From positions 1 to 64,000 of IMG/VR virus record IMGVR_UViG_3300043185_000099: a DNA stretch of 64,000 nucleotides. One strand, given 5' to 3'. A model generated the notes under the pieces. The model ran no database searches and was not told the DNA's origin. It saw only the letters and a program-made list of their open reading frames with translations. Below, piece by piece: positions 10,438 to 24,041 of the stretch (its first letter is position 1; every line of letters begins with the position of its first letter). Source of the stretch: a virus. The position numbers and the translations under genes are program-made.

Positions 10438-11518
10438 ATTTGACGATTCTTCGGCACCACTCCAGGAAATCCTCGATCGACAAGACGTTCCTCATCATGT
10501 TGACGTCCTTGTGAACCCACTGGACATTGTCCGGTCGATAGCCTGTTTCACGGTCGAGGCGATCTAGGGAGGCCGTTCGTCTTCGTCCTCTCAGTTCCAA
10601 GGGAAGCCCAGTCAACGCGCAGTGACCTTGTTGTTTTCGGTATATCTGCCAAGCCTCGGCCGCGGAGAGATCGACCGAGAGGCCGCGACGGCGCGCGCGG
10701 CGAAGAACCCTGGACCACAAGGTGGCCGAGACCTCACCTGACCCCTTGAACTGCAGACATCCACACGATGTCGACTTGTTCTGCACGAGAGAGTCGAACC
10801 GAACCTCCTTCTCCACGCCACACGCGCATCGACATCGGGCCGTGTAAGAGAGACCAGAGGGCGTCCGAGTACGCCATCGTTCTAGCACAGTCCATCTCCC
10901 GTAGCGTGTCTTTCGCGGCATGGGAATGCTCTCTCGAGACGACCCCTTTGCTCGCGGGTTCTCTGCGCAGACGGGACAATCCGGACTGACCACGAGGCCA
11001 CACAGGAACAGAAATCTCGACGGTGTCAAACGTCCCTTCATCAGGTTCACGGTCTTGTGGAGCCACTGAACGTTCGTGATCAGGTAGCCGCGGTCATTGT
11101 CTATGCGGTCGAGCGAGGCGGTCCCTTCCTTGAATCCGAGGGCTTGACCAGACAACGCACAGATGCCTTCCTGAGCTTGAAACAGATCCCAAGCATCCTC
11201 GATGTTCAACTTGAAGTCGTGTCCGCGTTCTCGCGCTCCGCGACCAAGACCAGACCAGTACTTGGCTGGGATGTCTCCGGCTCCGCGCCAGCTCGCGGAT
11301 CGAGATCCACGGAGATCTCTCGTGACCTCGCGATTTAGACACCCACAACTTCGGGTGGCACCTCGCTTGATCGAGGCGACCAACACTTCGATTTCCCTCC
11401 CGCAATCGCAGCGACATTGGGCAACGTAGCGGCGCACTCCCACCCTTCGGCGCCTCAACACAACCAAGCGTCCGAACCTACGGCCGTCCAAGTTCTCCTG
11501 GGAGTAGATGCGGGGCAT
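10415..11518 (-). CDS. HNH-type homing endonuclease, internally duplicated
   Basis: Two copies of CxCxCG...SCGC...CALSG/TG...ASLDRID/LD...NVQW.HK.VN.M. Confidence 0.8.
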   Translation of the reverse strand: MPRIYSQENLDGRRFGRLVVLRRRRVGVRRYVAQCRCDCGREIEVLVASIKRGATRSCGCLNREVTRDLRGSRSASWRGAGDIPAKYWSGLGRGARERGHDFKLNIEDAWDLFQAQEGICALSGQALGFKEGTASLDRIDNDRGYLITNVQWLHKTVNLMKGRLTPSRFLFLCGLVVSPDCPVCAENPRAKGSSRESIPMPRKTRYGRWTVLERWRTRTPSGLSYTARCRCACGVEKEVRFDSLVQNKSTSCGCLQFKGSGEVSATLWSRVLRRARRRGLSVDLSAAEAWQIYRKQQGHCALTGLPLELRGRRRTASLDRLDRETGYRPDNVQWVHKDVNMMRNVLSIEDFLEWCRRIVKFTGDRTP

Positions 11519-11587
11519 GTTTGGACAGACCAGTTTACCACGGGAGGGTTTTCGTATCAAGAATCGTTCTCTAAGAGGGTCCTGGAC

Positions 11588-11878
11588 ATGGCCGAGTCGA
11601 GCAAGAGCACGTCACGTGTAGACAGAGCGTGGGGAGTCTCGGATCCCGTAGCGGCCGCGGTGGGCTACGTCGTGACGATCTTGGCAGTGTTCGGGGTCTT
11701 CAAGAACCTGGGCCTCGATCCCGATCAGGTAGCCACTCTAGGCGGCGCCCTAGGGGGTCTTGTGGCGACCCTCCGTGCCCTCCATGAGAGGAGCAAGAAG
11801 CGCCAGATCACGTCTCTCCTGGAAGAGTTGGAGCGCCATCGAGCATCCTCCTCTCACAGCGGCAGCTCGCCGAAGTAA
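11588..11878 (+). CDS. holin-like small membrane protein
   Basis: Two hydrophobic segments followed by a basic/charged C-terminus. Confidence 0.5.
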   Translation: MAESSKSTSRVDRAWGVSDPVAAAVGYVVTILAVFGVFKNLGLDPDQVATLGGALGGLVATLRALHERSKKRQITSLLEELERHRASSSHSGSSPK

Positions 11879-11895
11879 GATTTCTCCGCCAGCGC

Positions 11896-11924
11896 TTGAC
11901 GTCGTCGAGAAAGCCCGCTAGAGT
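11896..11924 (+). promoter_or_regulatory. sigma70-type promoter
   Basis: TTGACG-17 nt-TAGAGT upstream of the Thr-rich leader and tRNA-Thr cluster. Confidence 0.7.
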
Positions 11925-11970
11925 GCTCCCGTCCCTGTCCTTGGCAGGCGGGACGACCGAGAACCACGCC

Positions 11971-12066
11971 ATGAGACGCACCACGACAACCGAGACCACC
12001 GTGACGGCCAAGCCGGCCGCCGCGATGTGGTCGTGCGGCCCCGATACGGCCGCAATCGCGTGTTGA
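11971..12066 (+). CDS. Thr-rich leader peptide (31 aa, MRRTTTTETTVTAKPAAAMWSCGPDTAAIAC)
   Basis: 7 Thr codons within codons 4-12 (ACC, ACG, ACA). Lies between a promoter and three tRNA-Thr genes; resembles thrL-type leaders. Confidence 0.7.
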   Translation: MRRTTTTETTVTAKPAAAMWSCGPDTAAIAC

Positions 12067-12140
12067 GCGTCTCCCCGGTGTAGTTCCGTCCAACAGACAA
12101 CACCGGGGAGACCCGCAGCACGCGAGCCGACCGGCTAGGC
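12007..12140 (+). promoter_or_regulatory. attenuator-like alternative RNA structures
   Basis: Stems: GTCTCCCCGGTGT/ACACCGGGGAGAC (12069-81/12100-12); CGCGTGTTG/CAGCACGCG competing with the CGCGAT..TGCGGCC/GGCCGCA..ATCGCG hairpin; GCCAAGCCGG/CCGGCTAGGC. Confidence 0.5.
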
Positions 12141-12151
12141 ATCATGCCCTC

Positions 12152-12219
12152 GCTGACGTAGCACAGTGGCAGTGCACCGCCCTCGTACTGCGGGGACAAG
12201 AGTTCGATTCTCGGCTCCA
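12152..12219 (+). pseudogene. tRNA-Thr(CGT), apparently with a ~6-nt deletion in the T-stem/acceptor 3' strand
   Basis: GCTGACG..D-arm..CCGCC CT CGT AC TGCGG..AAGAG TTCGATT CTC[..]GGC T CCA. Confidence 0.65.
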
Positions 12220-12238
12220 CGAACCAGGAGAAACCATC

Positions 12239-12311
12239 GCCGGCGAAGCTCAAGAGGAAGAGCGCCTGACTTGTAATCAGGAGGAAGCGGGTTCGACTCC
12301 CGTAGCCGGCT
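12239..12311 (+). tRNA. tRNA-Thr(TGT)
   Basis: Cloverleaf with anticodon arm CCTGA CT TGT AA TCAGG and T-loop GGTTCGACTCC. Confidence 0.85.
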
Positions 12312-12317
12312 CCCGAC

Positions 12318-12393
12318 GCTACCGTAGCTCAGTCGGGAGAGCGCAAACTTGGTAAGTCTGAGGTCGCCGGTTCGATCCCGGCCGGTAGCTCCA
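12318..12393 (+). tRNA. tRNA-Thr(GGT)
   Basis: Acceptor stem GCTACCG/CGGTAGC, anticodon arm CAAAC TT GGT AA GTCTG, encoded CCA. Confidence 0.9.
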
Positions 12394-12420
12394 AGCGACA
12401 AGACGAGGAAAGGAAGACAG

Positions 12421-12537
12421 ATGCCACGCACGCTCACAGGACCACTCGATCAGGACTCCGACGAGGACGACGATCGTTCGCCGCGTTGGGGTAGTGGTCA
12501 TCCTGTCCGGTTGTCTCCCGGACGACACCGCGGATGA
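12421..12537 (+). CDS. Asp-rich leader ORF (MPRTLTGPLDQDSDEDDDR...) reading into tRNA-Asp
   Basis: Purine-rich Shine-Dalgarno (GAGGAAAGGAAG). 6 Asp codons in 9 codons, ending 5 nt before the tRNA-Asp 5' end. Confidence 0.65.
   Translation: MPRTLTGPLDQDSDEDDDRSPRWGSGHPVRLSPGRHRG
12480..12530 (+). pseudogene. tRNA-Asp(GTC), 5' two-thirds, truncated at the T-stem
   Basis: GCCGCGT TG GGGTAGTGGTCATCCT G TCCGG TT GTC TC CCGGA CGAC ACC, then foreign sequence. Confidence 0.65.
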
Positions 12538-12598
12538 GCAGGTCGCGAAGCGGCGCCGGGAAGAGCACGCACGCGTCGTAGACCACGATGAACGCCAC
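12530..12598 (-). pseudogene. PIN-domain toxin N-terminal fragment
   Basis: GTG start, AFIVVYDACVLFPAPLRDLLIR. Typical start of PIN proteins paired with excisionase-like HTH genes; the similarity stops at the tRNA-Asp junction. Confidence 0.65.
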
Positions 12599-12613
12599 GA
12601 CGCGACCTGCCTG

Positions 12614-13066
12614 TCAGTACCCTAGGTCGTGCTTCTGCGCCTCGGCGGCGAGTTCTTCGAGGGCGGCCTTCGCCTCGACTTCTTCGCGGCGCTTGTACTC
12701 GAGGACATCCGCCATCTTGATCCGACGGTGGGTGCCCACCTTCCGGTGCGGGATCTTTCCCTCCTCGAGCAGGCGCACGACGTGAGGCCGGGAGACGTTC
12801 AGGAACTCGGCCGCCTGCTGGGTGGTCAGCTCCGCGTGCTGCGGAAGGATGGCGACCAGGCTCCCGTTCGCCATGTGCCCGAGCACCTCGACGAGAAGGC
12901 GCAGGGCGTCCGGCGGCAAGGTCACGGTGACCTCGTGCCCATTGTCCTCGGAACGCAGGGTCACGGCCCGTGGGGCCCGGGCCCGCTTGCTCAGGGGCTC
13001 GAGCCCGCGCAGGGCCGAGCGGGCGATCTCGGCGGCGTCCTTTGCGGGTGCAGGGGCGGCGTGCAT
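12614..13066 (-). CDS. excisionase-family HTH DNA-binding protein (putative antitoxin)
   Basis: LTTQQAAEFLNVSRPHVVRLLEEGKIPHRKVGTHRRI. Confidence 0.85.
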   Translation of the reverse strand: MHAAPAPAKDAAEIARSALRGLEPLSKRARAPRAVTLRSEDNGHEVTVTLPPDALRLLVEVLGHMANGSLVAILPQHAELTTQQAAEFLNVSRPHVVRLLEEGKIPHRKVGTHRRIKMADVLEYKRREEVEAKAALEELAAEAQKHDLGY

Positions 13067-13499
13067 GGGGTGGGCTCCGAGGGGAGCTTACCCCTCCGCC
13101 GCGTAAACGCAATAAACGAAACCGACCTGAACCAAGGGAGGTTCAAACCGCCCCAGAAACCAGTTTGCAGACCGTTGGCCGGGTTCGAGGGACGCGAAAG
13201 GGTTTGCGAACTCGCCCACGTTCGCGCTCGCGCGGGATGAGCGCCCGTCGGGGTTCGCGCGGGCGCGCTGCTCGGGGGTGAGACGGGGTCGGGACACGGT
13301 CGCGGGGCCACCAGGGTAGCGTCCGCGGCGCGGGTGGCGGTCGAACCTTCGAGATCGCCGGCGCGCCGGCGATGCGTGGGACTCCGCGAACGCACGGCCC
13401 GGGCCGAGGGATTCACCGATCCTCGGGAAACGGGCAGCTAGAGGGTCTGCGGGCGCGGTGGTGGAGGGGCACAGAGGAGGCGAGGGCCCGGGCGGTCGT

Positions 13500-13800
13500 C
13501 GCGAATGGTACAGGCACACGACGAGGGGCAGGCGAGGTCGCACGGTCACGATCCCGCGAGACCTCGTCCAGGCGCTTCGTGTCGCGAACCCGGGAGCGAA
13601 CGATCCCGTCGCCCGCGGCGCGGATGGGCAACGCGTCATGCCGTGCGCCCTGACCGAGCTGCTCCCCACCTTGCTGCGCAAGGCGGGGCTCGACCGACCC
13701 GGCCTCGGGCTGCACTGCCCGCGGCACACGTACTGCTCGCCGACCGGTACAGGCACCTCGCCCCGAGGCACGTCGAGCAATCCGTTCACGGGCGGCCCGG
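13500..13800 (+). pseudogene. tyrosine recombinase/integrase C-terminal remnant
   Basis: T[R]GRRGRTVTIP and LHC[P]RHTYCS, then a jump to DRYRHLAP (catalytic Tyr region) in another frame with the intervening segment missing. Confidence 0.65.
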
Positions 13801-13848
13801 CCTTGACCCGGACCTGACGGCAAGAAGCCCCGTTTTCGGGGCCTAGAC

Positions 13849-13888
13849 GGAGCGGGAGACGGGATTCGAACCCGCGACATCCAGCTTG
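13849..13888 (-). other. 3' half of a tRNA-Gly (att-like site)
   Basis: Minus strand reads CAAGCTGGATGTCGCGGGTTCGAATCCCGTCTCCCGCTCC. No 5' half nearby; adjacent to the integrase remnant. Confidence 0.7.
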
Positions 13889-13944
13889 CCTTCTAAGCAA
13901 GCGTGCAGCAAAACAAGACCTCGCACTCGGAACGACCTGACATT

Positions 13945-14066
13945 GCCGGACCACGACCCCATCGGGGGGTCACCGACTCAAAATCGGAAAAGACCGCAGC
14001 ACTCGCCTCCCCGAGAGGCATCCGCGGATGGTCCACAAGCTCCTGGTTCGACTCCAGGGTCCGGCG
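13945..14066 (+). tRNA. atypical tRNA-Leu(CAA)-like gene with a ~53-nt variable region
   Basis: Acceptor GCCGGAC/GTCCGGC, anticodon arm CCGA CT CAA AA TCGG, T-arm CCTGG TTCGACT CCAGG. D-arm is non-canonical. Confidence 0.5.
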
Positions 14067-14096
14067 CCGAAGGTGGCCCGCCAGACAGGGCCTACA

Positions 14097-14153
14097 AGCA
14101 AAGTAGCTCAATCGGTTGAGCGTCTCGATCGCAACGAGAAGGTCGCTGGTTCG
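14097..14153 (+). pseudogene. tRNA-like fragment, anticodon CGC (Ala), truncated in the T-loop
   Basis: TAGCTCAATCGGTTGAGCG TCTCG AT CGC AA CGAGA AGGTC GCTGGTTCG, then foreign sequence. Confidence 0.5.
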
Positions 14154-14431
14154 GCAGCCGCTTCCTGGACCCATCGACGGAGAACGTCGCCGTCAAACGT
14201 CTCGGCGAACAGGTGGAGACGGGTCGTGTGCGCTGCAGGTGCACGGAACGAGGTCGCGTAGTACCGGCTGAACTCCTCGATGTAGTGCCGGTCGACGTAC
14301 GGGTGTTCCACGACCATCGTGCCGATGTCGAACCCACCGTGGCGAAAGTAAGCGGCGAGGTACTTGACCTGCTCGGACTCATGGTCCCCGCCGCACACTT
14401 CCGCCACGAGCTGTTGCAGCGGCCGCGTCAT
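14108..14431 (-). pseudogene. N-terminal fragment of a bacterial hypothetical protein
   Basis: VVEHPYVDRHYIEEFSRYYATSF...RLHLF. The frame runs into the antisense of the tRNA fragment, suggesting truncation. Confidence 0.45.
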
Positions 14432-14445
14432 GGCCGATGCCGAGG

Positions 14446-14625
14446 CTACCGCAGGCGGATGCGAAGATCCTTTGCGGTCAACTTCTCAAGAGATGCGGTC
14501 CCGGCTTCCACCGCTGCACGGAACTCGGTCGCCTCCTTGTCCAGGCGGTCGAGATCGGCGTCGGTGAGGGTCGCAGGTCGAGGCAGCTCCGTCGCCAGTT
14601 TCGGCTTCTGGGTCTCGTCGGCCAT
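14446..14625 (-). CDS. small hypothetical protein
   Basis: MADETQKPKL..., GGAG Shine-Dalgarno. Confidence 0.55.
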   Translation of the reverse strand: MADETQKPKLATELPRPATLTDADLDRLDKEATEFRAAVEAGTASLEKLTAKDLRIRLR

Positions 14626-14691
14626 GGTGCGCTCCCGAAGATCCGGGGAGGATCTCGGCGTCAGGCTAGCCGCCGCTGCGCCGAGGCGCAA

Positions 14692-14716
14692 GGTTCAAAT
14701 TCTGTCCCCGCTACCA
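14692..14716 (+). other. 3' fragment of a tRNA-Met(initiator)-like gene
   Basis: GGTTCAAATTCTGTCCCCGCTACCA. Confidence 0.45.
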
Positions 14717-14807
14717 CGACAATCCCGAGGTCGGTCGCCGATGGCGGCGTGACAGGCCGGCCTCGCATGCCCCCCTCCTCAGGGATCGTCGACGTGGCTT
14801 CTATGCC

Positions 14808-15467
14808 ATGTCCTTGACCTCGCTCTGGCGTAGAAGCAAGGTGCGACGCATCTTCCGCTGCCCCCAAGAAGTAGTCTTGGATCCGTCCGAGATTCGCGTC
14901 GCTCGAGCCCTCGGTACGGCGAGACATAATCGAGACCGCAAGCACGGAATCGTTGACCGCCAGGTCGACATCAAAACACCAGACGAGTCGATTCGCCGGG
15001 ATGCCCTGGCGATGGGAGCCGAGCTAGCCCTCTGCAAGGCTTGGAATCTGTATCCGGATCTCACAACCCATCCCCGGCATGGCGGGATCGACACACGCCT
15101 CCACAATGGCCGGACAGTAGACGTCAAACACACTCCGCATGGCTGGAACCTTTGGTTCCCGACCTACAAGACCCTCGACGGGCACGCTGACATCTGTGTG
15201 CTCGTTACCGGCGGAGATCCAGATGGCACTCCCTATGTCATCCAGGGGTGGGCCTGGACCACGGATCTCACCCAGGAGCGGAGGATCGGCCGTCTTCCAC
15301 GTCGGGAGGAGCCGACATACCTGATGACCATTGGCGAGCTGTTCACGGAAATCGAGGACCTCCCGGGGGTTGACCTTCCACCCGCTCGGGAAGTGCCTGA
15401 CCTGGATCTGAGCTGCCTCTGGACCTCCGAGACGCCGTCCCTTGACAACGGCTCTCATTCCACGTAG
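14808..15467 (+). CDS. hypothetical phage protein (possible PD-(D/E)xK fold)
   Basis: GAELALCK...D...TVDVKHT pattern. Confidence 0.6.
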   Translation: MSLTSLWRRSKVRRIFRCPQEVVLDPSEIRVARALGTARHNRDRKHGIVDRQVDIKTPDESIRRDALAMGAELALCKAWNLYPDLTTHPRHGGIDTRLHNGRTVDVKHTPHGWNLWFPTYKTLDGHADICVLVTGGDPDGTPYVIQGWAWTTDLTQERRIGRLPRREEPTYLMTIGELFTEIEDLPGVDLPPAREVPDLDLSCLWTSETPSLDNGSHST

Positions 15468-15470
15468 GAT
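15442..15470 (+). promoter_or_regulatory. sigma70-type promoter
   Basis: TTGACA-17 nt-TAGGAT upstream of tRNA-His. Confidence 0.75.
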
Positions 15471-15523
15471 GCGTCTGAACACGGTCCCATGATGATCTCC
15501 CGACATAGCGACGAGCCACACAT

Positions 15524-15600
15524 GGTGGGTGTAGTGCAGTCGGTCAGAACGCGGGTCTGTGAAACCCGAGGCACCGGTTCGATCCCGGTCACCTACCCCA
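15524..15600 (+). tRNA. tRNA-His(GTG)
   Basis: G-1, anticodon arm CGGGT CT GTG AA ACCCG, T-arm, C discriminator and encoded CCA. Confidence 0.9.
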
Positions 15601-15774
15601 AGAACAACACGAGCGCGCGCTTTATCTAGCCGGATCTCCGCACGACGGAGGATCCGGCCGAGAAGAAACGCGACCCGTCGGACAGCTCTCGACCGAGGCT
15701 GTCCTCGTGGTCGCACTCCTGCGTGCGTCCATCGTGATGGGTGAAAATCATGGACATTGTTCTCTTTCCTGCGG

Positions 15775-15849
15775 TGCCTCGGGTTGGAGTTGAACCAACA
15801 CCTCCTGGTCTTCAGCCAGGCGCTTACGGACCGCGTCAGCTTCCGAGGC
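15775..15849 (-). tRNA. tRNA-Phe(GAA)
   Basis: Acceptor GCCTCGG/CCGAGGC, anticodon arm CCTGG CT GAA GA CCAGG, T-arm GTTGG TTCAACT CCAAC; followed by CCG rather than CCA. Confidence 0.85.
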
Positions 15850-16106
15850 CGCGCATCTGTCTGCGCTGCGGCCAGACCGTAACCGCGGAGCAGTTTACAC
15901 GGCCGGCTCCGCGAGGAGAAGGACCGGCGCCGCAGACTCGCCGCGGTCGGGTAGCTCATCTTCGGGCTCGATGACACTCGTGGTTCACGCGCCAGAGTCG
16001 GGAACGGCAGAACTCTGCCGGAGGATCATCGGGGCCGTGGAGGCGAGGACGTAGAGAATAGGGGAGATGAATGTCGACGGTTCGACCTCGTCCCCGACCA
16101 CCGCCG

Positions 16107-17162
16107 TCACATCGTCCGCGCGAAGAACTCCTCGTGCTCGGGCGGCAGCGTGCCGAGCACGTGCATGGCGAACGCCTCCGGGAAGTGCTCGGTCACCTTC
16201 GTGGCCGCGTAGTCCGACGGGAAACTCCTGGCCATCGCCTCGTGCTCCATGAGGTTCCAGAGGGAGTTCGCCGACACCTTCGCTCCCGTGGACAGGACCA
16301 CCAGGATCCTGCCCCGCAGATCGGTCTCGTACTTGACTATCGTGGGAGTCTCCTTGGCCCCCTTGATCGGCACCGGGAGTAGATCGCCCGGCTTCGGAAG
16401 AGAGACTTGAGGGCGCCTGATCCCCAACTCCGTATGTCTGGCGGCCCACGCCTGCTTTTGCGTGCCTGACATGAACTTTGTCCAGTAGCGGTGTCCCAGC
16501 TCGTGTAGGAAGTTGTGCAGTTCCCCGCGTCCGACCTTCAGGTGCGGCCGCAGGTAGACGTCGTCCCCAGCCTCGTAGTACCACGCCAGCGTACGAGGTT
16601 GCTTGAGCCGTCCGACGAGGAATACGTCCCCATAGAGAACACGCGCCAGGTCGCTCCCCGCGCGCCGTAGCTTGGTCTCAGCCTGCGTGAGCAGACTCTT
16701 GATCGTGTCGAGCTTCCGGTCGTCGAGGTGCAGCGAGTTGTGAACCGTGAACGGTCCAACCTTGACCAGCTCCTGGACTTCGCGAGGGCTCTCTCCACGC
16801 TCCGGCCACTTCTCGGCCTCTAGGATGGTGGCGATGTGGCGTCGGTTCTTCGCCCACCACTTCACGATGTTTTTTGTTCGCGAGGCCTCGACGGCTCTGG
16901 CCGCAAGCTCGACCGCCTTCGCCTTTCCGGGAGGGATGGACCTCGTCTCGACGATCCATCGGGCGATCTGCTGCGCGTGGATGATAATCCGGCCCCACAG
17001 TACCCGGAGCAGCATGTCGCCCGGATCGCCCTTCACCAGTTCCTCCTCCAGCTGGTCGACGGTGCGACGTAAGTCTCCGTAGAGCCAGGAGATGCGTGAC
17101 GGATCATGGACCATCCCCGCGATCCACCGAGATGCGACACGTTTGGAGACTACACTCGTCAC
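16107..17162 (-). CDS. HEXXH zinc metallopeptidase-like protein
   Basis: LHELGH with downstream YA...EHFPEAF. Confidence 0.7.
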   Translation of the reverse strand: MTSVVSKRVASRWIAGMVHDPSRISWLYGDLRRTVDQLEEELVKGDPGDMLLRVLWGRIIIHAQQIARWIVETRSIPPGKAKAVELAARAVEASRTKNIVKWWAKNRRHIATILEAEKWPERGESPREVQELVKVGPFTVHNSLHLDDRKLDTIKSLLTQAETKLRRAGSDLARVLYGDVFLVGRLKQPRTLAWYYEAGDDVYLRPHLKVGRGELHNFLHELGHRYWTKFMSGTQKQAWAARHTELGIRRPQVSLPKPGDLLPVPIKGAKETPTIVKYETDLRGRILVVLSTGAKVSANSLWNLMEHEAMARSFPSDYAATKVTEHFPEAFAMHVLGTLPPEHEEFFARTM

Positions 17163-17163
17163 G

Positions 17164-18798
17164 CTACTTCACCGTGACCACAGTCCCGTCGAACTTGCGG
17201 AGCTTGAAGCCCACGAACGGCTGGTTGTATGTGTTCGCCACGTCCTTAAGGAACTGGATCGCCACCTTCTCGCCGAGGAGGATGCTCTGATCGCCGTCGC
17301 TCCGGTAGTGAACCCCCGCCATGTTTCGGCCCGTGGCGATGTTGGACGCGAGCTTGTTCAGCTCGACGCCCACGGTCAGCTGGCTCGTGATGTCGGGATC
17401 CGTAATAGCAGCGGCCTCCAGCTGGGCCATCGTCTCGGTCCCCGTGACCGACTCCACGATCTTGAACGTGCCTCCCGCGAGGCTCGTCATCAGGACGTCC
17501 TCATCAAAGAAGGCTTTGAGTACCGTGGCGCAAGCCCCAGCCACGGTTGCGTGTCCAGCTGGGTAGCTGGGATGCGCCGGACTTCCCTCTGGGAATACGA
17601 GCGGAAGCATGTAGGTCGGATGACCGTTCATCGTGTTGATGGCGAGGATACGGGCGGTCGTACCCGAACTCAGGAGTGTCGCATCGAGTCCATAGTTCTG
17701 TGCATCTGTCAGCGTGAAGTGAACCCGCCCGGCCATCACCTCTGGCCGCAGGCGCATGTTCACGCACCATTTGTGCCGCCAACACGTCTGCAAAGCGATC
17801 TGTGAGACCTCGAAGATCCTGGCCATGACGTCCGGCGGTCCCATGGTTCCGAATCCCACCTCGTTGGGGAGTACTGGAATGTTGGGGTCAAGCGGGGCTC
17901 CGGCGTTGAGGAGGATCAAGCAGGCGTGAAAGAACGCCTGCGCGAGAGGATCGTTGTGCACGTAGCTAGCGAGCACGCGCGGGCTGAACACCCGGCGACG
18001 GAGACCAGTCCGGTTGGCTCCCGGCGGCGTGATGCCTCGCTGGATGTCGAGCCACCCGGAGACGGAGATCGACGCGGCCGCGTCCGACTCCGTCTCCGTA
18101 AGCTGCTCGACGAACAGGTTGCCGTAGTCGAAGTCGTGGAGCATGAACTGGCTGACGTACGGCCCCACGGTCTCGCCCTGTCCCACGCCGCGGAAGAGCG
18201 TCTGTCTCGTCACGAGACCTCCGACCTTCGGTCCCTTGAAGCTTCCGCCGAACGTGTTGAGGTCGGACAGGAGCGTGTTCACGTCCGGCTCCTGCCCCGT
18301 CGTGCCATCAGCGATGTCGCGGAAGGCCGCGTCGCGCAAGATGGCCATGCCGTAGACCTCGACCATCTCTGAGCCGGCCTCGTCCGAAAGCATGGACGGG
18401 GCAGGTGGCATGCTCACGCTGAACGAGTCGGCGCCCAGGAGGGAGAACGCGAGACCAGCCTGTGGATCGACGAGTTTCCTGACGGCTGCCGGATCGCGCT
18501 TGATCCTGTCGAAGTACGCCTGGTCCCCGCTGCGCAGCGCGACCTCCACCATCACCCAGTCGTCATCCGACACCTCGCCGTAGGCGTTGTGGATCAGACA
18601 CTTGGAGTACATGGCGGTTCGGTACCAGACGCCTCCCCGCTGGATCATGAGGGCGCGGTCCGCGTTCTGGGCCTGGACGATCTCGGCCTCCTCTCGCTGC
18701 ACGTTGGCCCGGTCGATGCGGAAGTCGTAGGGCATCTCCTGGGGGTCGGAAGGGTCCTGGCGCCTCATCTTGCATACGGGGAAGGATAGGCCGAGCAC
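17164..18798 (-). CDS. vanadium-dependent haloperoxidase (PAP2 superfamily)
   Basis: All three vanadate-binding motifs: KWCVNMRLRPE, HPSYPAGH and RNMAGVHYRSD. Confidence 0.88.
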   Translation of the reverse strand: MLGLSFPVCKMRRQDPSDPQEMPYDFRIDRANVQREEAEIVQAQNADRALMIQRGGVWYRTAMYSKCLIHNAYGEVSDDDWVMVEVALRSGDQAYFDRIKRDPAAVRKLVDPQAGLAFSLLGADSFSVSMPPAPSMLSDEAGSEMVEVYGMAILRDAAFRDIADGTTGQEPDVNTLLSDLNTFGGSFKGPKVGGLVTRQTLFRGVGQGETVGPYVSQFMLHDFDYGNLFVEQLTETESDAAASISVSGWLDIQRGITPPGANRTGLRRRVFSPRVLASYVHNDPLAQAFFHACLILLNAGAPLDPNIPVLPNEVGFGTMGPPDVMARIFEVSQIALQTCWRHKWCVNMRLRPEVMAGRVHFTLTDAQNYGLDATLLSSGTTARILAINTMNGHPTYMLPLVFPEGSPAHPSYPAGHATVAGACATVLKAFFDEDVLMTSLAGGTFKIVESVTGTETMAQLEAAAITDPDITSQLTVGVELNKLASNIATGRNMAGVHYRSDGDQSILLGEKVAIQFLKDVANTYNQPFVGFKLRKFDGTVVTVK

Positions 18799-18879
18799 CG
18801 TGTAAACTCATGGATTGGGCCGTACTATGCCTCGCGAGATCCTCATGGAACGTCTACACATCGGCGGACGTCCATCCAC

Positions 18880-19653
18880 GTGCCGGAGGCGCGGGCCGTG
18901 TTCGATGCCGGGACGGTTCTCCCGGTGACGGTCGACCACCTGTTTCTGACGCACGGCCATCCCGACCACGCGGGCGCGCTCCCAGCCATCGCCGCGCGCC
19001 GGAAGATCCAGGGATGCCCCCGCCCACTCATGGTGTACCTGCCCGCCGAGATCGCCGAGGACGTAAAGACGGCTCTTGATGCGATGGGCAGGATCGGAGG
19101 GGATCGATCCTCGTCGGAGACCATAACACTCCGTCCGTGCAAGCCGGGAGATGCTGTGCCCCTCGAGCACGGGATCTCCGTCCGCGCGATGAAGACGTTC
19201 CACCGGGTGCCCACCTGCGGATGGGCCGTCGAGCAGACGACCAGGAAGCTGCGACCGGAATTCCAAGGCATGCCTGGCAAGGAGATCGGGCGTCTGCGCG
19301 CTGAAGGTGTCGTGGTCGCTGACGAGGCGGTGCGCACAATGCTCGTGATTCCCGGGGACACGACGATCGACTTCCTTCTGGAGAATGAACAGGCGCGACG
19401 GGCCCATGTGCTCACGCACGAGGTGACGTACTGGGACGACCGTTCCTCGATCGAGGAGTGTCGCAAGTTCGGCCACACACACGTGGACGACATGATCGAG
19501 CACTGCGAAAAATTCGAGGGCGATTTCCTTGTGCTCGTGCACCGATCTCTCAAGTACAGGAGGAACCACGCACAGGACGTTGGAATAACCCGAAGAAGAG
19601 CACCTACGCGTTGTTGGCTGGCAATATGGCGCTCGACAGCAAAAACCACGTGA
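18880..19653 (+). CDS. RNase Z (tRNase Z)-like metallo-beta-lactamase, probably damaged at both ends
   Basis: FDAG, THGHPDH, FHR, PGDT, HEVT, GHTH and LVHRSLKY. The upstream ATG at 18845 is out of frame, and the C-terminus after about 19575 looks foreign. Confidence 0.75.
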   Translation: MPEARAVFDAGTVLPVTVDHLFLTHGHPDHAGALPAIAARRKIQGCPRPLMVYLPAEIAEDVKTALDAMGRIGGDRSSSETITLRPCKPGDAVPLEHGISVRAMKTFHRVPTCGWAVEQTTRKLRPEFQGMPGKEIGRLRAEGVVVADEAVRTMLVIPGDTTIDFLLENEQARRAHVLTHEVTYWDDRSSIEECRKFGHTHVDDMIEHCEKFEGDFLVLVHRSLKYRRNHAQDVGITRRRAPTRCWLAIWRSTAKTT

Positions 19654-19898
19654 TCTGGAAGGGCCTCACGCAGTACTCCAACGCGCCCGAGATCTCGGAT
19701 TTCGTGCGGGACTTTCCGCAGTCCAATTATTCCGTGCTCGGAAAGTTCGCGAAGGCCAAGGTGAACCACCTCAAGGGCATGATCAATGGCACCAAAGTGA
19801 TCACCATCAACGGCGTCCCACAGCGTCCGAGCGAGGACGATCTCGGACGATGGCGCAAGGAGCTGGAGATCTGGGAAGATGTCCAGCGCCGGATCTAG
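19575..19898 (+). pseudogene. 3' portion of a phage hypothetical gene (WNNPKKSTY...)
   Basis: Natural-looking frame starts abruptly inside the RNase Z 3' end with no own start. Confidence 0.45.
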
Positions 19899-19931
19899 CG
19901 TCCCTTAATCATCCTATCGCATGCCTCCCGT

Positions 19932-20783
19932 ATGCGCATCACCGTTCCCGTCCTACTCCTTCTCGCATCTTGCGGCCGTCCCGCCCAGGAGAAAAGGTCA
20001 GAGCCAGAGCCCTCGCCGTCCCCACAGCACCAGGTGACAATCGCGAACCTTTGCCCGTTCGATGTCTGGGTGGCCTCGCAACCCAACGCCGGGCATCCGG
20101 TCCTGCCAGACGGGATCGTGAAACTCACGGCCAAGACCGGTACCCACGGCTACGCCATGCCCAACGCTGGGTGGGCTGGTCGATTTTGGCCGAAGACGGG
20201 ATGTGACGCGAGTGGTGAGGCGTGCGCGACGGGACAAGCCATTCCCCCGTGTCCCGCGGCGGGTTGCCAGCCCCCGGCCGACACCAAGATTGAGTTCTTC
20301 TTCGGCCCCGCAGGCGGCGCAGCCAGGCCCTACTACGACGTGAGTCTCGTGGACGGGTTCTCTCTGGGCGCCAAGATCGTGCCCTCAACCTCAGGCGGAA
20401 GATGTACGCCGACTTCGTGCGCGCTCGTGCTGAATGAGTGCCCCACTGCCGAGAAGGACAACGTCGGTGATCTGCAGATCAAGCAGGGGAACGACGTGGC
20501 CCAATGCTTCGCGCCCTGCAAGAAGTGGACGTGGCCCACACCTCTCGGTGATGGGAAGACCGAGGCCGACCCCACTGGCCAAGCGCTCTGCTGTCCGAGT
20601 CCCGTGACGCCCGAGACGTGCAACGCCGGGATCGTGAAAGACACAGAGTATGTGAAACTCGTGCACCAGGGCTGCCCCTCGGCCTACGCGTTTTCCTACG
20701 ACGACAAGGGAGGATCGCACGACTGCGATCCCGGCACGACCTTCACTGTCACCCTCTGCCCGGGTGTCCCCGCTCAGCCCTGA
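19932..20783 (+). CDS. thaumatin-family (PR-5-like) lipoprotein
   Basis: Lipobox LLLLASC; motifs IANLCPFDVW, WAGRFWPKTGC, TKIEF, YYDVSLVDGF, CPSAYAFSYDD and FTVTLCP. Confidence 0.88.
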   Translation: MRITVPVLLLLASCGRPAQEKRSEPEPSPSPQHQVTIANLCPFDVWVASQPNAGHPVLPDGIVKLTAKTGTHGYAMPNAGWAGRFWPKTGCDASGEACATGQAIPPCPAAGCQPPADTKIEFFFGPAGGAARPYYDVSLVDGFSLGAKIVPSTSGGRCTPTSCALVLNECPTAEKDNVGDLQIKQGNDVAQCFAPCKKWTWPTPLGDGKTEADPTGQALCCPSPVTPETCNAGIVKDTEYVKLVHQGCPSAYAFSYDDKGGSHDCDPGTTFTVTLCPGVPAQP

Positions 20784-21009
20784 CGCCGCCCGAAGGCCAA
20801 CGTCTTGTTCAGACGCTTGCGTCGTTCCTCGCAGGGGGAGCACGTCTTGATCCCCAGGGCGTTCGTCACCTTCTTCACGACATCCCCCGCACCAACTTGA
20901 CCTTTGATGGGCACGGGTACGACGATTTTGGGTTTCGGGTGGCGCTGGTGCATGCGGGGCCTTCCAAGACCCGGGAAGCCATAGACCCGAAACCGGGTAT
21001 ACTTCGTGC

Positions 21010-21252
21010 GTGTCAGCCGCGGGTCACGAGGCCCTCGTGAAGATCGTGCTCAGCACGGAGTGCCCATTCTCGGACGATGACTGGGTCGAGCGTTGTGCCC
21101 GTTACCGGGCCGACAACTTCAGCGTGTGCTGCTGCTGGATGTGCGGCAATCCCAGACGCCTGCGGAACAGCAACGGCCCGTCCCTCACGGTCCAGGAGCG
21201 TCTGGCGGATCTTCGCGAGCAGGTGTTGCTCGACGAGGGCTCGGACGGATAG
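21010..21252 (+). CDS. small Cys-rich phage protein
   Basis: CCCWMCGNPRR...LTVQER motif. Confidence 0.55.
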   Translation: MSAAGHEALVKIVLSTECPFSDDDWVERCARYRADNFSVCCCWMCGNPRRLRNSNGPSLTVQERLADLREQVLLDEGSDG

Positions 21253-21601
21253 AAAAGACGTCGTGTACGGGCCGCCGGAGGACATCGATGGGCAGTGCAA
21301 CGCGCAGCTCCACATCGGAGACGACTACGGCGACAATCACACGACCATGCGCTGCCAGCTCTCCCCGGGACACGACGGACCTCATCGCGAGGAGTTCCAG
21401 AGGTCCGGGACTCCCGTCGTGGTGACCTGGATGGTCGACGACAGGCTCGAGGACTGCCCCGTGTGTGGGCAGACGAGCATCGAGACGAAGTGGCCCGAGC
21501 ACTGCCAACACTGCTACACGCGCGCCTGTTCACCCGCTTGCCTGGAGAGGCACGAGTGCGACTGGGGAAGCCCGCTTGACACGATCCCCGAGAACGGCTA
21601 A
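21077..21601 (+). CDS. Cys/His-rich hypothetical protein (start uncertain, likely near 21240)
   Basis: CQLSPGHDGPH, CPVC, CQHC and CSPAC motifs. Confidence 0.45.
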   Translation: MTGSSVVPVTGPTTSACAAAGCAAIPDACGTATARPSRSRSVWRIFASRCCSTRARTDRKDVVYGPPEDIDGQCNAQLHIGDDYGDNHTTMRCQLSPGHDGPHREEFQRSGTPVVVTWMVDDRLEDCPVCGQTSIETKWPEHCQHCYTRACSPACLERHECDWGSPLDTIPENG

Positions 21602-21604
21602 AAA
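21576..21604 (+). promoter_or_regulatory. sigma70-type promoter (weak -10)
   Basis: TTGACA-17 nt-TAAAAA. The predicted +1 falls near the ATG at 21611, so the mRNA may be leaderless. Confidence 0.55.
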
Positions 21605-21610
21605 CCTTCC

Positions 21611-21733
21611 ATGACTCGCGAGACCCGTGTCCGGGAAGCCATCGACCAGGTGCTCAGCACCCGGGGCGATCTCCTGCGCCGTCTCGCCGAGGTCGAAGCC
21701 GCCGAGAAACGGATCGGGAAGCACAAGCGTTAG
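21611..21733 (+). CDS. 40-aa leader ORF ending EKRIGKHKR
   Basis: All 3 Lys codons are in the last 8 codons; followed by a hairpin and tRNA(CTT). Confidence 0.5.
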   Translation: MTRETRVREAIDQVLSTRGDLLRRLAEVEAAEKRIGKHKR

Positions 21734-21782
21734 CCCGCCGTGGACGATCCTCCGTCCGCGCCGGGCTTCGCAGGCACATCTC

Positions 21783-21868
21783 GGGCCGGTCGCACAGTCT
21801 GGTTGGTGTAGCGGACTCTTAATCCGCCGGACGCAAGTCCCTCGTGGGTTCAAATCCCTCCCGGCTCA
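21783..21868 (+). tRNA. tRNA with Lys anticodon CTT and a long variable arm
   Basis: Acceptor GGGCCGG/CCGGCTC, anticodon arm GCGGA CT CTT AA TCCGC, V-arm GGAC GCAA GTCC, T-arm GTGGG TTCAAAT CCCTC. Confidence 0.8.
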
Positions 21869-21895
21869 CCGCCCTCCACAGGTTCACGGAATACC

Positions 21896-22141
21896 GTGGA
21901 CACCATTCCACTTTTCCCCAACAGCTCCGGGGCCGCCACTTTCCTCGGCTCCTTCGACGGGCACGACTTGTATTTCGATCCGCAAATCGGCATCCCGACC
22001 GTGATCGCCCGGTATGGGCCCGAGGGCCACGAGTACAAGAGCGGCATGGAGTTCGCCGTGCGCGGACTCGACACGCACTTGGTCGAGGCGCGTCGACGTG
22101 CCCTCGCTCTCGGCCTCATCAAGACGATCCAGGAGGGATGA
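21896..22141 (+). CDS. small conserved phage protein
   Basis: FLGSFDGHDLYF...TVIARYG...YKSG pattern. Confidence 0.65.
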   Translation: MDTIPLFPNSSGAATFLGSFDGHDLYFDPQIGIPTVIARYGPEGHEYKSGMEFAVRGLDTHLVEARRRALALGLIKTIQEG

Positions 22142-22192
22142 TCCGATGCCCGTCACACACCACAAGCTCAAACGCAACCGCTCCCGAAACAA

Positions 22193-22274
22193 GGGCGGGT
22201 TAAGCGTAGCTGGCCGAACGCACCGGACTTTTAACCCGGCGAGGAGAAATCCCCATCGAATCCCACCCCGCTCT
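22193..22274 (+). pseudogene. tRNA-Lys(TTT) with a long variable arm, 5' T-stem strand missing
   Basis: Acceptor GGGCGGG/CCCGCTC, anticodon arm CCGGA CT TTT AA CCCGG, V-arm GGA GAAA TCC, then ATCGAATCCCAC lacking the GTGGGTT strand. Confidence 0.6.
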
Positions 22275-22295
22275 CCGCAACGAAGGAACACAGCC

Positions 22296-22980
22296 ATGGA
22301 CACCCTCATCATCGAGATACGTGCCGCCGAGGGCGGTCAAGACGCCAAGCTGCTCGTGATCGAGCAGTTCAAGGTCTACGAGCGCTTCATGCAGCTGGAG
22401 CGCCTTTGACCACGAGCTGATCGACGTACGGCCTGGGATTCTCCTGTTCCGCGTGACCGGCCGAGGTGCGCGAGAAGCCTTCCGCCACGAACCGGGCGGT
22501 CATAGGTGGCAGAGAGTGCCCCCCACCGAGAAGCGCGGTCGAGTGCACACGAGCACCGTGACGGTCGCCGTGCTCGACGTGCCGTCCGAGCACGAGGTCG
22601 TGATCGATCCCCGCGACATCGAGGAGTCCTTCACCCGAGGCAGCGGCAAGGGTGGCCAGCACAGGAACAAGACGGACACCTGCGTGGTGCTCAGGCACCT
22701 GCCCACCGACATCTCGATCCGCGTCGACGGGGGTCGAAGCCAGCACGTCAACCGTCAGACGGCCATGCAGATGCTGAGAACCAGGATCAAGGCGGCGGCA
22801 GACGAACGCGCCACCGGAACCAGGAACGCGAGCCGTCGGGCACAGCTGGGAAGCGGCATGCGCGGTGACAAGGTCCGGACGGTGGCCCTCCAGCGCGACA
22901 CCGTGACGGACCACGAGACGGGGCGGTCGATGGCCTCGAGGCCATACCTGCGAGGGCACCTCCGTCACCTGTGGGCATGA
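22296..22980 (+). CDS. class I peptide chain release factor (RF1-type PxT, lacks domain 1), expressed by a +1 frameshift at 22404-22410
   Basis: Frame 0 encodes IEIRAAEGG; the +1 frame encodes GGHRWQRVPPTEKRGRVHTS, GSGKGGQHRNKT and RSQHVN. Junction is GGAG CGC CTT TGA C. Confidence 0.9.
22397..22410 (+). promoter_or_regulatory. prfB-type programmed +1 frameshift cassette
   Basis: Internal SD-like GGAG, 3-nt spacer, CTT TGA C. Confidence 0.85.
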
Positions 22981-23195
22981 GGTCGCGTCCACCATCGGCG
23001 AAGCCTGCCTCGCCATCGTCGCAGGAGCACCTGCCACCACGACATCCGGCGCACCAGGATCTCCCGCCGCCCGCCCGCGAGGACCTCGTAGCGGGCTGCG
23101 CCTCTCGCCGTCTGCAGGAGAACCATATCGCCGCGACGAAAGACCGACGGGTCCTCGACCGGGATCCAAGAGCGGCGGTGACGAGGCACAGTCAC
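22965..23195 (-). CDS. small hypothetical protein
   Basis: 76-aa ORF at the end of the minus-strand block. Confidence 0.4.
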   Translation of the reverse strand: MTVPRHRRSWIPVEDPSVFRRGDMVLLQTARGAARYEVLAGGRREILVRRMSWWQVLLRRWRGRLRRWWTRPHAHR

Positions 23196-23216
23196 CCGTA
23201 CCTCGGGATAGAACCG

Positions 23217-24041
23217 TCACCGCTCAATCCCGAGCAGGTCGAAGATGCCTCCGGTCTGGGCGGGTGCGTCAGCATGCTCCTCGTAGTGCCATCCCTGGCG
23301 CCGACGCTCAAAATGGTCGAGCGCCTCTTGCTTGACGTCGAACCCGAGGAACCGCCTCCCGAGATTGAACGCGGCCTCACCACACGATCCGCTACCAGCG
23401 AACGGATCGAGCACTAGGTCGCCCGGGGCGCTCGACTGTGCGATCAAGATCTCGTTGAGACGCACGGGCTTCTCCGTCGGGTAAGCGTCGTTCCCCTTGA
23501 TCCACGGGACGTCAGCGATATCCTGAAAGTTCCTGACGGACTTGTCGGCCGGGGGTAACCTTTTCCCCTTCTCCGCGAGGAGGACAAACTCGTAGGATGA
23601 TCGGTACGGGTACCCCATCCCAGGCGCTCCCGGAGCGTGTCGCTCGGTCACGTGCGCCCCGCACCGTGGACACGCTACCGACTCGAGCTTGCCCACCTTG
23701 TGCCAGATGACGGACTTGCGCAACCCGAAGCCCGCGTCACGGATCATCGGCTTGAGCGCATCCGCGGTCTCCTCGTCGCACATGATGTACATGTGCGAGT
23801 CTCTGTCTAGAACTCGATAACACTCGACGAAGAACTCTTTGAAGTAACTGTTCGGCACTGTCGGGAACCACGCGTTGCTCGACTGCTTCGACTTCGTCAG
23901 CCGAGTCGTCGTACCCATGTTTCTCCACTTCTCCAGGCTCTCGTAGGGAGGATCGGTGACGATGAGGCCGACCGACTCCGCTTCGAGGACTCGCATGGCC
24001 GTCATGGCATCGTCGACGAGACGCATCTCGTGGTCGCTCAC
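23217..24041 (-). CDS. beta-class DNA methyltransferase (N6A/N4C)
   Basis: TDPPY, YPTEKP and DPFAGSGS; internal CPRC insertion. Confidence 0.9.
   Translation of the reverse strand: MSDHEMRLVDDAMTAMRVLEAESVGLIVTDPPYESLEKWRNMGTTTRLTKSKQSSNAWFPTVPNSYFKEFFVECYRVLDRDSHMYIMCDEETADALKPMIRDAGFGLRKSVIWHKVGKLESVACPRCGAHVTERHAPGAPGMGYPYRSSYEFVLLAEKGKRLPPADKSVRNFQDIADVPWIKGNDAYPTEKPVRLNEILIAQSSAPGDLVLDPFAGSGSCGEAAFNLGRRFLGFDVKQEALDHFERRRQGWHYEEHADAPAQTGGIFDLLGIER

Follow-up and report, generated by a model that had tools for sequence, protein, structure and literature searches.

The window analysed here is the whole 64,000-nucleotide stretch (positions 1 to 64,000) of IMG/VR record IMGVR_UViG_3300043185_000099, and comprises the first 64 kb of a 152-kb fragment of a high-GC giant phage belonging to a family of very large freshwater phages. 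Several blocks of tRNA genes in this window start with a tiny reading frame rich in the codons that the next tRNA reads. The features are as follows.

11896..11924 (+), sigma-70-like promoter of the Thr unit (TTGACG, 17 nt, TAGAGT)
11971..12066 (+), Thr leader ORF of 31 codons with 8 Thr (7 of 9 codons at 11980-12006), whose start resembles thrL
12057..12125 (+), long hairpin whose 5' arm holds the stop codon of the Thr leader; the inner 13-bp stem pairs 12069-12081 with 12100-12112, and no U tract follows
12152..12219 (+), degenerate tRNA-Thr(CGT), probably a pseudogene
12239..12313 (+), tRNA-Thr(TGT)
12318..12393 (+), tRNA-Thr(GGT)
12405..12477 (+), Asp leader with a purine-rich Shine-Dalgarno site (12405-12416), an ATG at 12421 and 6 Asp in 9 codons (12448-12474); the frame runs on to a TGA at 12534-12536
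12480..12527 (+), 5' remnant of tRNA-Asp(GTC), consisting of the acceptor 5' strand, the D arm and the anticodon arm, with the T arm replaced
12434..13066 (-), inserted toxin-antitoxin remnant, with an HTH_17/excisionase-type protein (12614-13066) and the first ~20 residues of a PIN toxin (12434-12598)
15442..15470 (+), promoter of the His unit (TTGACA, 17 nt, TAGGAT)
15489..15524 (+), His leader of 12 codons with 2 His (CAT and CAC), reading into tRNA-His
15525..15600 (+), tRNA-His(GTG)
21576..21604 (+), promoter-like site (TTGACA, 17 nt, TAAAAA), 6 nt before the ATG of the Lys leader, so that the mRNA would be leaderless or nearly so
21611..21733 (+), Lys leader ORF of 40 codons, with 3 Lys among the last 8 codons
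21733..21766 (+), hairpin that begins at the last base of the Lys leader's stop codon
21783..21870 (+), tRNA with anticodon CTT and a long variable arm (47.3 bits)
22146..22255 (+), ORF with a Shine-Dalgarno site and 3 Lys in 16 codons (22146-22193), reading into a weak tRNA(TTT)-like sequence at 22195-22255 (22.9 bits)

The first-pass annotation had reported that five tRNA loci are each preceded by a short ORF enriched in codons for the amino acid of that tRNA, and this observation was confirmed, all codon counts being correct. It had also placed clear TTGAC-17 nt promoters at the start of three loci. The sites of the Thr and His units passed our promoter scan, whereas the third, that of the Lys unit, has a weaker second hexamer and failed the scan's rule for the last base, although relatives keep TTGAC-type promoters at the same place. 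The -35 hexamer and most of the -10 of the Thr promoter are invariant in an alignment of five genomes, and relatives also have a promoter at the position of the His promoter.

Three tRNA assignments required correction. Of the three tRNA-Thr genes announced, only two are intact: the copy at 12152-12219 scores 27.6 bits, below the Rfam cut-off, and has broken acceptor and T stems, while it is intact in relatives. The tRNA-Asp lacks a complete cloverleaf and was not detected by ARAGORN, by blastn or by Rfam, even as a truncated match; foreign DNA, the inserted toxin-antitoxin remnant, follows its anticodon arm and cuts off the rest of the tRNA array, which in relatives continues with Asp-Val-Val-Ile-Met tRNAs. 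We accept the remnant as tRNA-Asp from its synteny with intact tRNA-Asp genes in relatives, where these follow the Thr tRNAs and the Asp leader, and in this window the Asp unit is probably dead because its tRNA is truncated. The tRNA with the TTT anticodon is weak.

The codon runs are far from what chance would give. When the 152-kb contig was read in all six frames, only two 9-codon clusters with at least 7 Thr were found, one of which lies 146 nt upstream of the tRNA-Thr cluster, and the only cluster with at least 6 Asp ends 5 nt before the tRNA-Asp remnant. The expected number of such a cluster falling in the short stretch upstream of a cognate tRNA is about 0.002 for Thr and 0.0002 for Asp. 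In 316 kb of this phage family read in six frames, all 6 clusters with at least 6 of 9 Asp lie 0-11 nt before a tRNA-Asp or its remnant, three of the 4 clusters with at least 7 of 9 Thr lie 146-169 nt before a tRNA-Thr cluster, and four triple-His runs lie exactly 7 nt before tRNA-His. As a control, IMG/VR was scanned for ATG plus six Asp codons; at least 80 other viral loci carry this pattern, and none of the 80 examined is next to a tRNA, so that no second phage group with this unit was obtained.

Single-protein searches of IMG/VR with three neighbouring proteins, as well as an exact search for the Thr run, returned no relatives, and GenBank phages matched only the tRNAs. Eight related phage contigs were nevertheless found, one of them 618 kb long, and all that carry the units keep the same mini-ORFs. 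Two contigs, L001 and L011, hold no tRNAs, and L131, a more distant virus, shows no leader. The Asp unit, a Shine-Dalgarno site, an ATG and 6-9 Asp codons that end 6 nt before tRNA-Asp, is present in 8 of 8 genomes; its leaders differ in sequence, but each has 6-9 Asp among its 10-18 codons after the ATG, and all keep a GAAAGGAG-type Shine-Dalgarno site. Two or three adjacent His codons lie 6 nt before tRNA-His in 6 of 8 genomes, the leader being 18-20 codons long in relatives and shortened in this window. The Lys leader has 9-11 codons with 3 Lys in relatives and is followed by the hairpin that starts at the stop codon. The Thr leader is thrL-like and keeps 30-32 codons with the same start and stop context in nine genomes, although the Thr and His leaders lack a strong Shine-Dalgarno site. 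An Ile unit was seen only in relatives. Two further genomes examined subsequently keep the Asp and Thr leaders.

The first-pass annotation had named in advance the absence of cognate enrichment, or of conservation of the leaders, as grounds for abandoning its reading, and had proposed comparison with shuffled leader-tRNA pairings. Neither ground was encountered: the leaders are conserved in position, frame, start codon and, for Asp and Ile, Shine-Dalgarno site across the eight related contigs, their peptide sequences drift while the cognate composition is kept, and the true leader-tRNA pairing ranks 1 of 120 possible pairings. Cognate residue fractions are 0.59 (Asp), 0.19 (His), 0.21 (Ile), 0.29 (Lys) and 0.23 (Thr), against 0.02-0.07 in the phage's proteins. 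The leaders also over-use the wobble-read codons (GAT 55% against 30% in genes, and CAT 67% against 25%). The enrichment is strong for Asp and for Thr in 5 of 9 genomes, and clear for His and Lys-CTT; His and Lys, which had been called weak in this window, are clearer in relatives. It is weak for Lys-TTT, whose leaders in relatives hold one Lys, the Thr run is weak in the related genomes L003, L004 and L010 (5-6 Thr of 30-31 codons), and the Ile leaders of L004 and L010 hold 1-2 Ile and are also Asp-rich. Since the loci are homologous, the genomes are not independent trials.

Most other tRNAs have no such leader. The tRNA-Phe, which the first-pass annotation had already set aside, has only one conserved Phe codon, in a longer zinc-ribbon-like ORF upstream, and is not counted as having a leader. 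A conserved ATG-ATG overlapping the 5' end of one tRNA-Met has no Shine-Dalgarno site and is too short to judge, and a Lys-rich stretch 80 nt before the odd tRNA at contig position 125820 is the end of a longer ORF, not a leader. A multivalent reading, in which the Thr leader also samples Val, Ile, Met and Asp, the amino acids of the rest of the array, is suggestive only (14-20 of 29-30 codons against a 28% background, and top 0.3-2% of all five-residue sets), and the Val codons also form the pairing partner of the Thr codons.

The RNA structures fall into two groups. The long hairpin of the Thr unit (region z-score -5.4) has a conserved consensus fold with some compensatory changes, and the Lys hairpin is conserved in six genomes, with three pairs showing compensatory changes. 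In contrast, the read-in leaders have no hairpin, and the leader RNA before tRNA-Asp is predicted to be unstructured, which leaves the start site open. A scan for terminators found none on the + strand in 11000-23000, and the sequences after both hairpins lack U runs; classical intrinsic termination is therefore not supported. Folding with a ribosome placed on the Thr run or on the stop codon showed no conserved antiterminator or alternative pairing, which leaves undecided whether mutually exclusive hairpins exist in the Thr and Lys leaders; a ribosome stalled on the Thr run leaves the big hairpin intact, so that, if this hairpin terminates transcription, the sign would be the wrong way round.

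Based on these data, the interpretation put forward by the first-pass annotation, that ribosome stalling on a depleted codon switches on transcription or maturation of the matching phage tRNA, is supported. In the explanation that we favour, with a probability of roughly 0.6, the mini-ORFs are translated cis-acting sensors of how fast ribosomes decode the codons of the tRNA that follows, which probably lets the phage tune each tRNA to demand, and they come in two layouts. The read-in leaders (Asp, His, Ile, Lys-TTT) have a Shine-Dalgarno site, an ATG and a run of cognate codons ending about 6 nt before the tRNA's first base, with no stop codon before the tRNA. When the charged cognate tRNA is plentiful, ribosomes would run on into the tRNA sequence and keep it unfolded, so less mature tRNA would be made; when it is scarce, ribosomes would wait on the run, and the tRNA behind them would fold and be cut out by RNase P. 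In the stop-plus-hairpin leaders (Thr, Lys-CTT), the ORF ends at or inside the 5' arm of a conserved hairpin, so the position of the ribosome would decide whether that hairpin forms, which would set read-through or processing of the tRNAs behind it. The analysis itself demonstrates conservation, cognate enrichment, conserved start signals and conserved hairpins, and codon sensing is well supported, whereas translation of the mini-ORFs, the output step (read-through or maturation) and its direction (more tRNA on shortage) are inferred, as is any anticodon-nuclease context. There are no expression or ribosome data: no RNA sequencing run containing the sequence is listed, which is not evidence either way, the only run containing it in full is a freshwater metagenome that may be its source, and reads were not mapped because contigs cannot show RNA ends. 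A more far-reaching possibility, tentative and less likely than not, is that the read-in leaders, whose cognate run ends a fixed 6 nt from the tRNA's first base, are a new type of switch that does not act through transcription termination; ribosome traffic itself would then decide whether the tRNA can fold and be cut out by RNase P, a translation-gated tRNA maturation giving each phage tRNA its own supply-and-demand loop.

Among the alternatives, the one that survives best, although unlikely, is that the mini-ORFs are translated but with a different logic: ribosomes following RNA polymerase would shield the untranslated tRNA transcript from Rho or from nucleases, so that plentiful cognate tRNA gives more tRNA, not less, or the leaders would mainly set transcript stability. 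The conserved start signals, the absence of a U-tract terminator and the persistence of the large hairpin with a ribosome stalled on the Thr run, which fits poorly with stall-induced read-through, speak for this view. However, a shield needs no particular codons, yet the enrichment is specific to the amino acid of the next tRNA and favours slowly read wobble codons, and positive feedback on a tRNA supply has no obvious use.

It is somewhat less likely that the codon runs act at the RNA level without translation, as processing or protein-binding signals, as sites that pair with the anticodon, or as slippage-prone triplet repeats that persist next to the tRNA. The runs are indeed simple triplet repeats, and the Thr codons (ACG ACC) and the Val codons later in the same leader are reverse complements that pair in a hairpin (hairpin A), so part of the composition could serve structure. 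On the other hand, every Asp run is in frame with an ATG placed 4-8 nt after a conserved Shine-Dalgarno site, synonymous codons alternate within the runs, the length of the Thr ORF is held at 30-32 codons despite sequence change, and no Rfam family matches these leaders. Still more doubtful is that the mini-ORFs encode small peptides with their own function, located next to tRNAs incidentally: the C-terminal half of the Thr leader is well conserved as a peptide in six genomes, but this half is also the paired part of the RNA, the read-in ORFs have no conserved end (their tails are the translated tRNA genes, and their lengths differ between genomes), and five different peptides each matching the neighbouring tRNA is not expected under this reading. 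Chance co-occurrence picked out by a reader looking for it, although the His and Lys cases are weak in the window alone (binomial P of 0.013 and 0.13), is very improbable given that the runs are nearly unique in the sequence, sit at the cognate tRNAs and recur in eight relatives.

Why large phages carry tRNAs, and how they use them, is an open question. Here the tRNA genes themselves appear to be wired to a sensor of decoding speed for their own codons, which would make phage tRNAs a regulated, on-demand supply rather than a constant supplement, and would extend leader-peptide control to a new class of target. The read-in layout suggests a direct contest between ribosome and RNase P on one RNA, which is accessible in vitro with purified parts, and the elements are short, so they could also serve as portable sensors of the charging state of a single tRNA.

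Phage tRNAs can replace host tRNAs lost to anticodon nucleases or infection-induced decay, as established for phage T5 against PARIS. Similarly, large phages carry tRNAs for Lys, His, Asp and others, and RNA ligase genes sit beside the arrays in relatives; those reports, however, concern the tRNAs themselves, and our literature search found no report of codon-matched leader ORFs or of such control of tRNA genes. The leader-peptide transcription attenuators of amino-acid operons (E. coli thrL, hisL, pheL, and the multivalent ilv leaders) share with the present units a short ORF just after a promoter, tandem codons for the sensed amino acid, use of slowly read codons, and a stop codon placed against a stable hairpin, and the Thr leader even begins like thrL (MKR, then Ser/Thr) and carries a Thr run. 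They differ in that the genes lying downstream here are tRNAs, not biosynthetic enzymes, that there is no U-tract terminator, that a conserved antiterminator alternative could not be shown, and that four of the six leader types have no stop codon or hairpin at all and run straight into the tRNA. In the pheM-pheST attenuator, a leader peptide likewise senses the charged tRNA and feeds back on a part of the same decoding pathway, but the target there is the synthetase, through a classical terminator, whereas here it is the tRNA gene itself. T-box riboswitches also sense supply of one specific tRNA and control genes of the same amino-acid pathway, but a T-box binds uncharged tRNA directly and needs no translation, while the leaders described here carry start signals, and no match to the T-box covariance model (specifier loop and T-box sequence) was found at the gathering threshold in the whole window, nor at E up to 10 in 11000-23500. 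In translational attenuation and stalled-ribosome switches (ermCL, tnaC with Rho), a ribosome held on a leader changes what the RNA just downstream can do, and in tnaC a ribosome held at the stop codon blocks a neighbouring site, which resembles the Lys leader, whose stop codon touches the hairpin; those systems, however, stall through the nascent peptide plus a drug or free tryptophan, not through shortage of a cognate tRNA, and their outputs are protein-coding genes.

The 151,955-base IMG/VR virus record, of which the window covers bases 1-64000, is rated by CheckV as 29% complete. GC content is about 62%. As one relative lies on a contig of 618,736 bases, the record represents a fragment of a very large phage. 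The only sequencing run containing the full stretch is a freshwater metagenome. ARAGORN and Rfam agree on the following tRNA genes in the window, with tRNA-Phe found by Rfam only; the last three entries are tRNA-like stretches that fall below the Rfam cut-off:
12239-12313, tRNA-Thr(TGT)
12318-12393, tRNA-Thr(GGT)
15525-15600, tRNA-His
15775-15849, minus strand, tRNA-Phe
21783-21870, plus strand, tRNA with a long arm and anticodon CTT
12152-12219, tRNA-like stretch with a CGT anticodon but broken acceptor and T stems
14097-14163, plus strand, tRNA-like stretch scoring 28.4 bits
22195-22255, tRNA-like stretch scoring 22.9 bits

The tRNA at 21783-21870 combines a long variable arm and A73, a Leu/Tyr-like build, with a Lys anticodon, which is CTT in the window and TTT in its counterpart on the related contig L006 (5547-5633, plus strand); its amino-acid identity is unclear. 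The stretch at 14097-14163 belongs to a single tRNA body (5' end GCAAAG), which appears across the related contigs L003 (7718-7790 and 8080-8150), L004 (12804-12877 and 13158-13233), L005 (10833-10905) and L009 (12809-12881) with different anticodons (Ala CGC, Ile GAT, Arg ACG, Ser GCT and ATC), and this suggests anticodon switching within a phage tRNA lineage. Outside the window, the contig carries at 125820-125895 (minus strand) an intact tRNA (60 bits) with an 8-base anticodon loop that ARAGORN reads as 'ctac', and the related contig L002 carries a tRNA with a CTA (amber-reading) anticodon (9117-9193, minus strand). However, TAG still ends 18 of 54 long ORFs in the window's contig, so wholesale TAG recoding is not evident.

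The first-pass annotation had described short ORFs rich in cognate codons in front of five tRNA loci, and this observation held, as every codon count it gave is correct. The Thr run sits in a 31-codon ORF at 11971-12066, which lies 47 nt behind a promoter-like site and ends inside the 5' arm of a very stable hairpin (the region 11931-12150 folds with a z-score of -5.4). The Asp run sits in an ORF that starts at 12421 behind a purine-rich Shine-Dalgarno site. What follows this run is only the 5' part of a tRNA, which no tool detects, and on the minus strand the DNA beyond it encodes the first ~20 residues of a PIN toxin next to an excisionase-type HTH protein. A toxin-antitoxin remnant has therefore replaced the rest of the array, and both the Asp unit and one of the three Thr genes are decayed in this window. 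In the whole contig, read in six frames, only two 9-codon windows hold at least 7 Thr and only one holds at least 6 Asp; one of the Thr windows and the single Asp window sit just upstream of the cognate tRNA on the same strand, whereas the numbers expected by density are about 0.002 and 0.0002, respectively.

Close-match searches for related phages returned none. In contrast, the neighbouring 544-residue vanadium-haloperoxidase-like protein (17164-18798, minus strand) has a clade of relatives at 63-89% identity within this phage family, as well as homologues at about 40-45% identity in Myxococcota and Acidobacteria. Retrieval of the contigs of this clade yielded six relatives that carry tRNAs (L002, L003, L004, L005, L009 and L010), and L132 was obtained in the same way. 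A tRNA-anchored pattern search yielded L006, with L007 and L008 as copies of the same phage, and a second such pattern yielded L133, a contig binned with a Gemmatimonadota genome; the host is unknown. Contigs L003, L004, L005, L006, L132 and L133 carry the intact form of the window's array on the same strand, composed of three tRNA-Thr, a gap, two tRNA-Asp, and then Val, Ile and Met tRNAs, which settles that the remnant at 12480 is a cut tRNA-Asp. In L003 (14726-14801), L004 (19281-19356) and L005 (17152-17228), the leader-fronted first tRNA-Asp has an unusual anticodon loop (U32 and a non-standard position 38), while the second tRNA-Asp right behind it has the standard loop. RNA ligase genes lie beside the tRNA arrays of relatives (L004, 361-1017) and, in L005 (16315-16878), inside the array, which fits a tRNA repair or replacement context. 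The window also encodes, at 18880-19653 (plus strand), a metallo-beta-lactamase-fold protein that scores best as RNase Z, below the cut-off, and whose counterparts in relatives are recorded with the anti-Pycsar Apyc1 family; it could be a tRNA 3'-end enzyme or a cyclic-nucleotide phosphodiesterase. A thaumatin-family protein with a signal-peptide-like start is encoded at 19932-20783 (plus strand), and L005 has one too.

Loss of conservation among relatives had been named beforehand as an outcome that would count against the leaders, and the comparison shows that they are retained. For the Asp unit, all eight genomes have a conserved GAAAGGAG-type Shine-Dalgarno site with an ATG 4-8 nt later. 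Seven of them have 6-9 Asp among the first ten codons after the ATG, while the window's own six Asp lie at codons 10-18 (6 of the 18 after the ATG). In six genomes the run ends exactly two codons (6 nt) before the first base of tRNA-Asp, the gap being 5 nt in the window and about 4 nt in L010. The peptides differ from genome to genome, and GAC and GAT alternate. In L010, as in the window, the tRNA behind the leader has decayed but the leader remains. For the His unit, an 18-20-codon ORF behind a conserved promoter reads into tRNA-His; four genomes have three adjacent His codons 6 nt before the tRNA, two have two, and L010 and the window have two separated His codons. An Ile unit, absent from the window, consists in L006 of a Shine-Dalgarno-led ORF with 4 Ile in 11 codons that reads into tRNA-Ile, whereas L004 has 2 Ile and L010 has 1; these leaders are also Asp-rich and look derived from the Asp unit.

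In the Lys-CTT unit the promoter ends 6-10 nt before the ATG of an ORF of 9-11 codons, three of them Lys; the window's copy is longer but ends the same way. The ORF is followed by a hairpin whose first pair uses the last base of the stop codon and of which three pairs show compensatory changes, then by about 20 nt, and then by the tRNA. In the Lys-TTT unit the ORF is conserved and reads into the tRNA, but relatives have only one Lys codon there. At 22296-22980 (plus strand), the window carries a release-factor gene that lacks domain 1, scores best as RF1 (169 bits against 108 for RF2), and is split by CTT TGA C behind a GGAG, the layout of the prfB +1 frameshift site; relatives have the same split into a ~37-codon piece and a ~175-codon piece. 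For the Thr unit, all nine genomes keep an ORF of 30-32 codons with the same start and the same stop context. Codons 4-14 vary freely and hold a run of 7 Thr in 9 in the window, L005, L006 and L133, and of 6 in 10 in L132, whereas L003, L004 and L010 have only 3-4 there. The second half of the ORF is nearly invariant at the DNA level in the close relatives and forms two hairpins, while a long third hairpin holds the stop codon.

In 316 kb of the phage family read in six frames, all six Asp-rich clusters and three of the four Thr-rich clusters are these leaders, and four of 47 triple-His runs lie exactly 7 nt before tRNA-His. Comparison with shuffled leader-tRNA pairings had been proposed as a check in the first-pass annotation; here, a five-by-five table of leader family against residue fraction is strongly diagonal (0.59 for Asp, 0.19 for His, 0.21 for Ile, 0.29 for Lys and 0.23 for Thr, against 0.02-0.07 in the phage's proteins), and the true pairing is the best of 120. 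The leaders prefer the wobble-read codons, with GAT in 22 of 40 cases against 30% in genes and CAT in 16 of 24 against 25%; since the background comes from this contig only and the pooled genomes share ancestry, these P values are indicative. As a control, at least 80 unrelated viral loci with ATG plus six Asp codons were examined, and none of these 80 lies beside a tRNA.

The in-frame cognate runs behind conserved start signals argue for translation, and the choice of slow codons argues for sensing of decoding speed, and to this extent the codon-sensing interpretation of the first-pass annotation is supported. The evidence is entirely comparative: position, start signals, cognate composition and hairpins were observed directly, whereas translation, the output step and its direction are inferred. 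For the read-in units, we propose that ribosomes passing the run invade and unfold the tRNA, while ribosomes waiting on the run leave it free to fold and be released by RNase P; the fixed 6-nt spacing and the unstructured leader fit this hypothesis, although nothing in the present data tests it. For the Thr and Lys-CTT units, the stop codon touches a conserved hairpin, as in attenuators, but there is no U tract and no conserved alternative pairing was found, so that the output step could be Rho-dependent termination, pausing or processing, of either sign. The Thr leader may also sample the other amino acids of its array, a possibility for which the test gave a modest result, but its Val codons are also the pairing partners of its Thr codons.

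Full-text literature searches, which did not cover all journals, found no description of leader-peptide control of tRNA genes. The nearest known systems are the leader-peptide attenuators of amino-acid and synthetase operons; the features that define that family are only partly present in the leaders described here, and we therefore regard them as a new variant rather than as members of that family.
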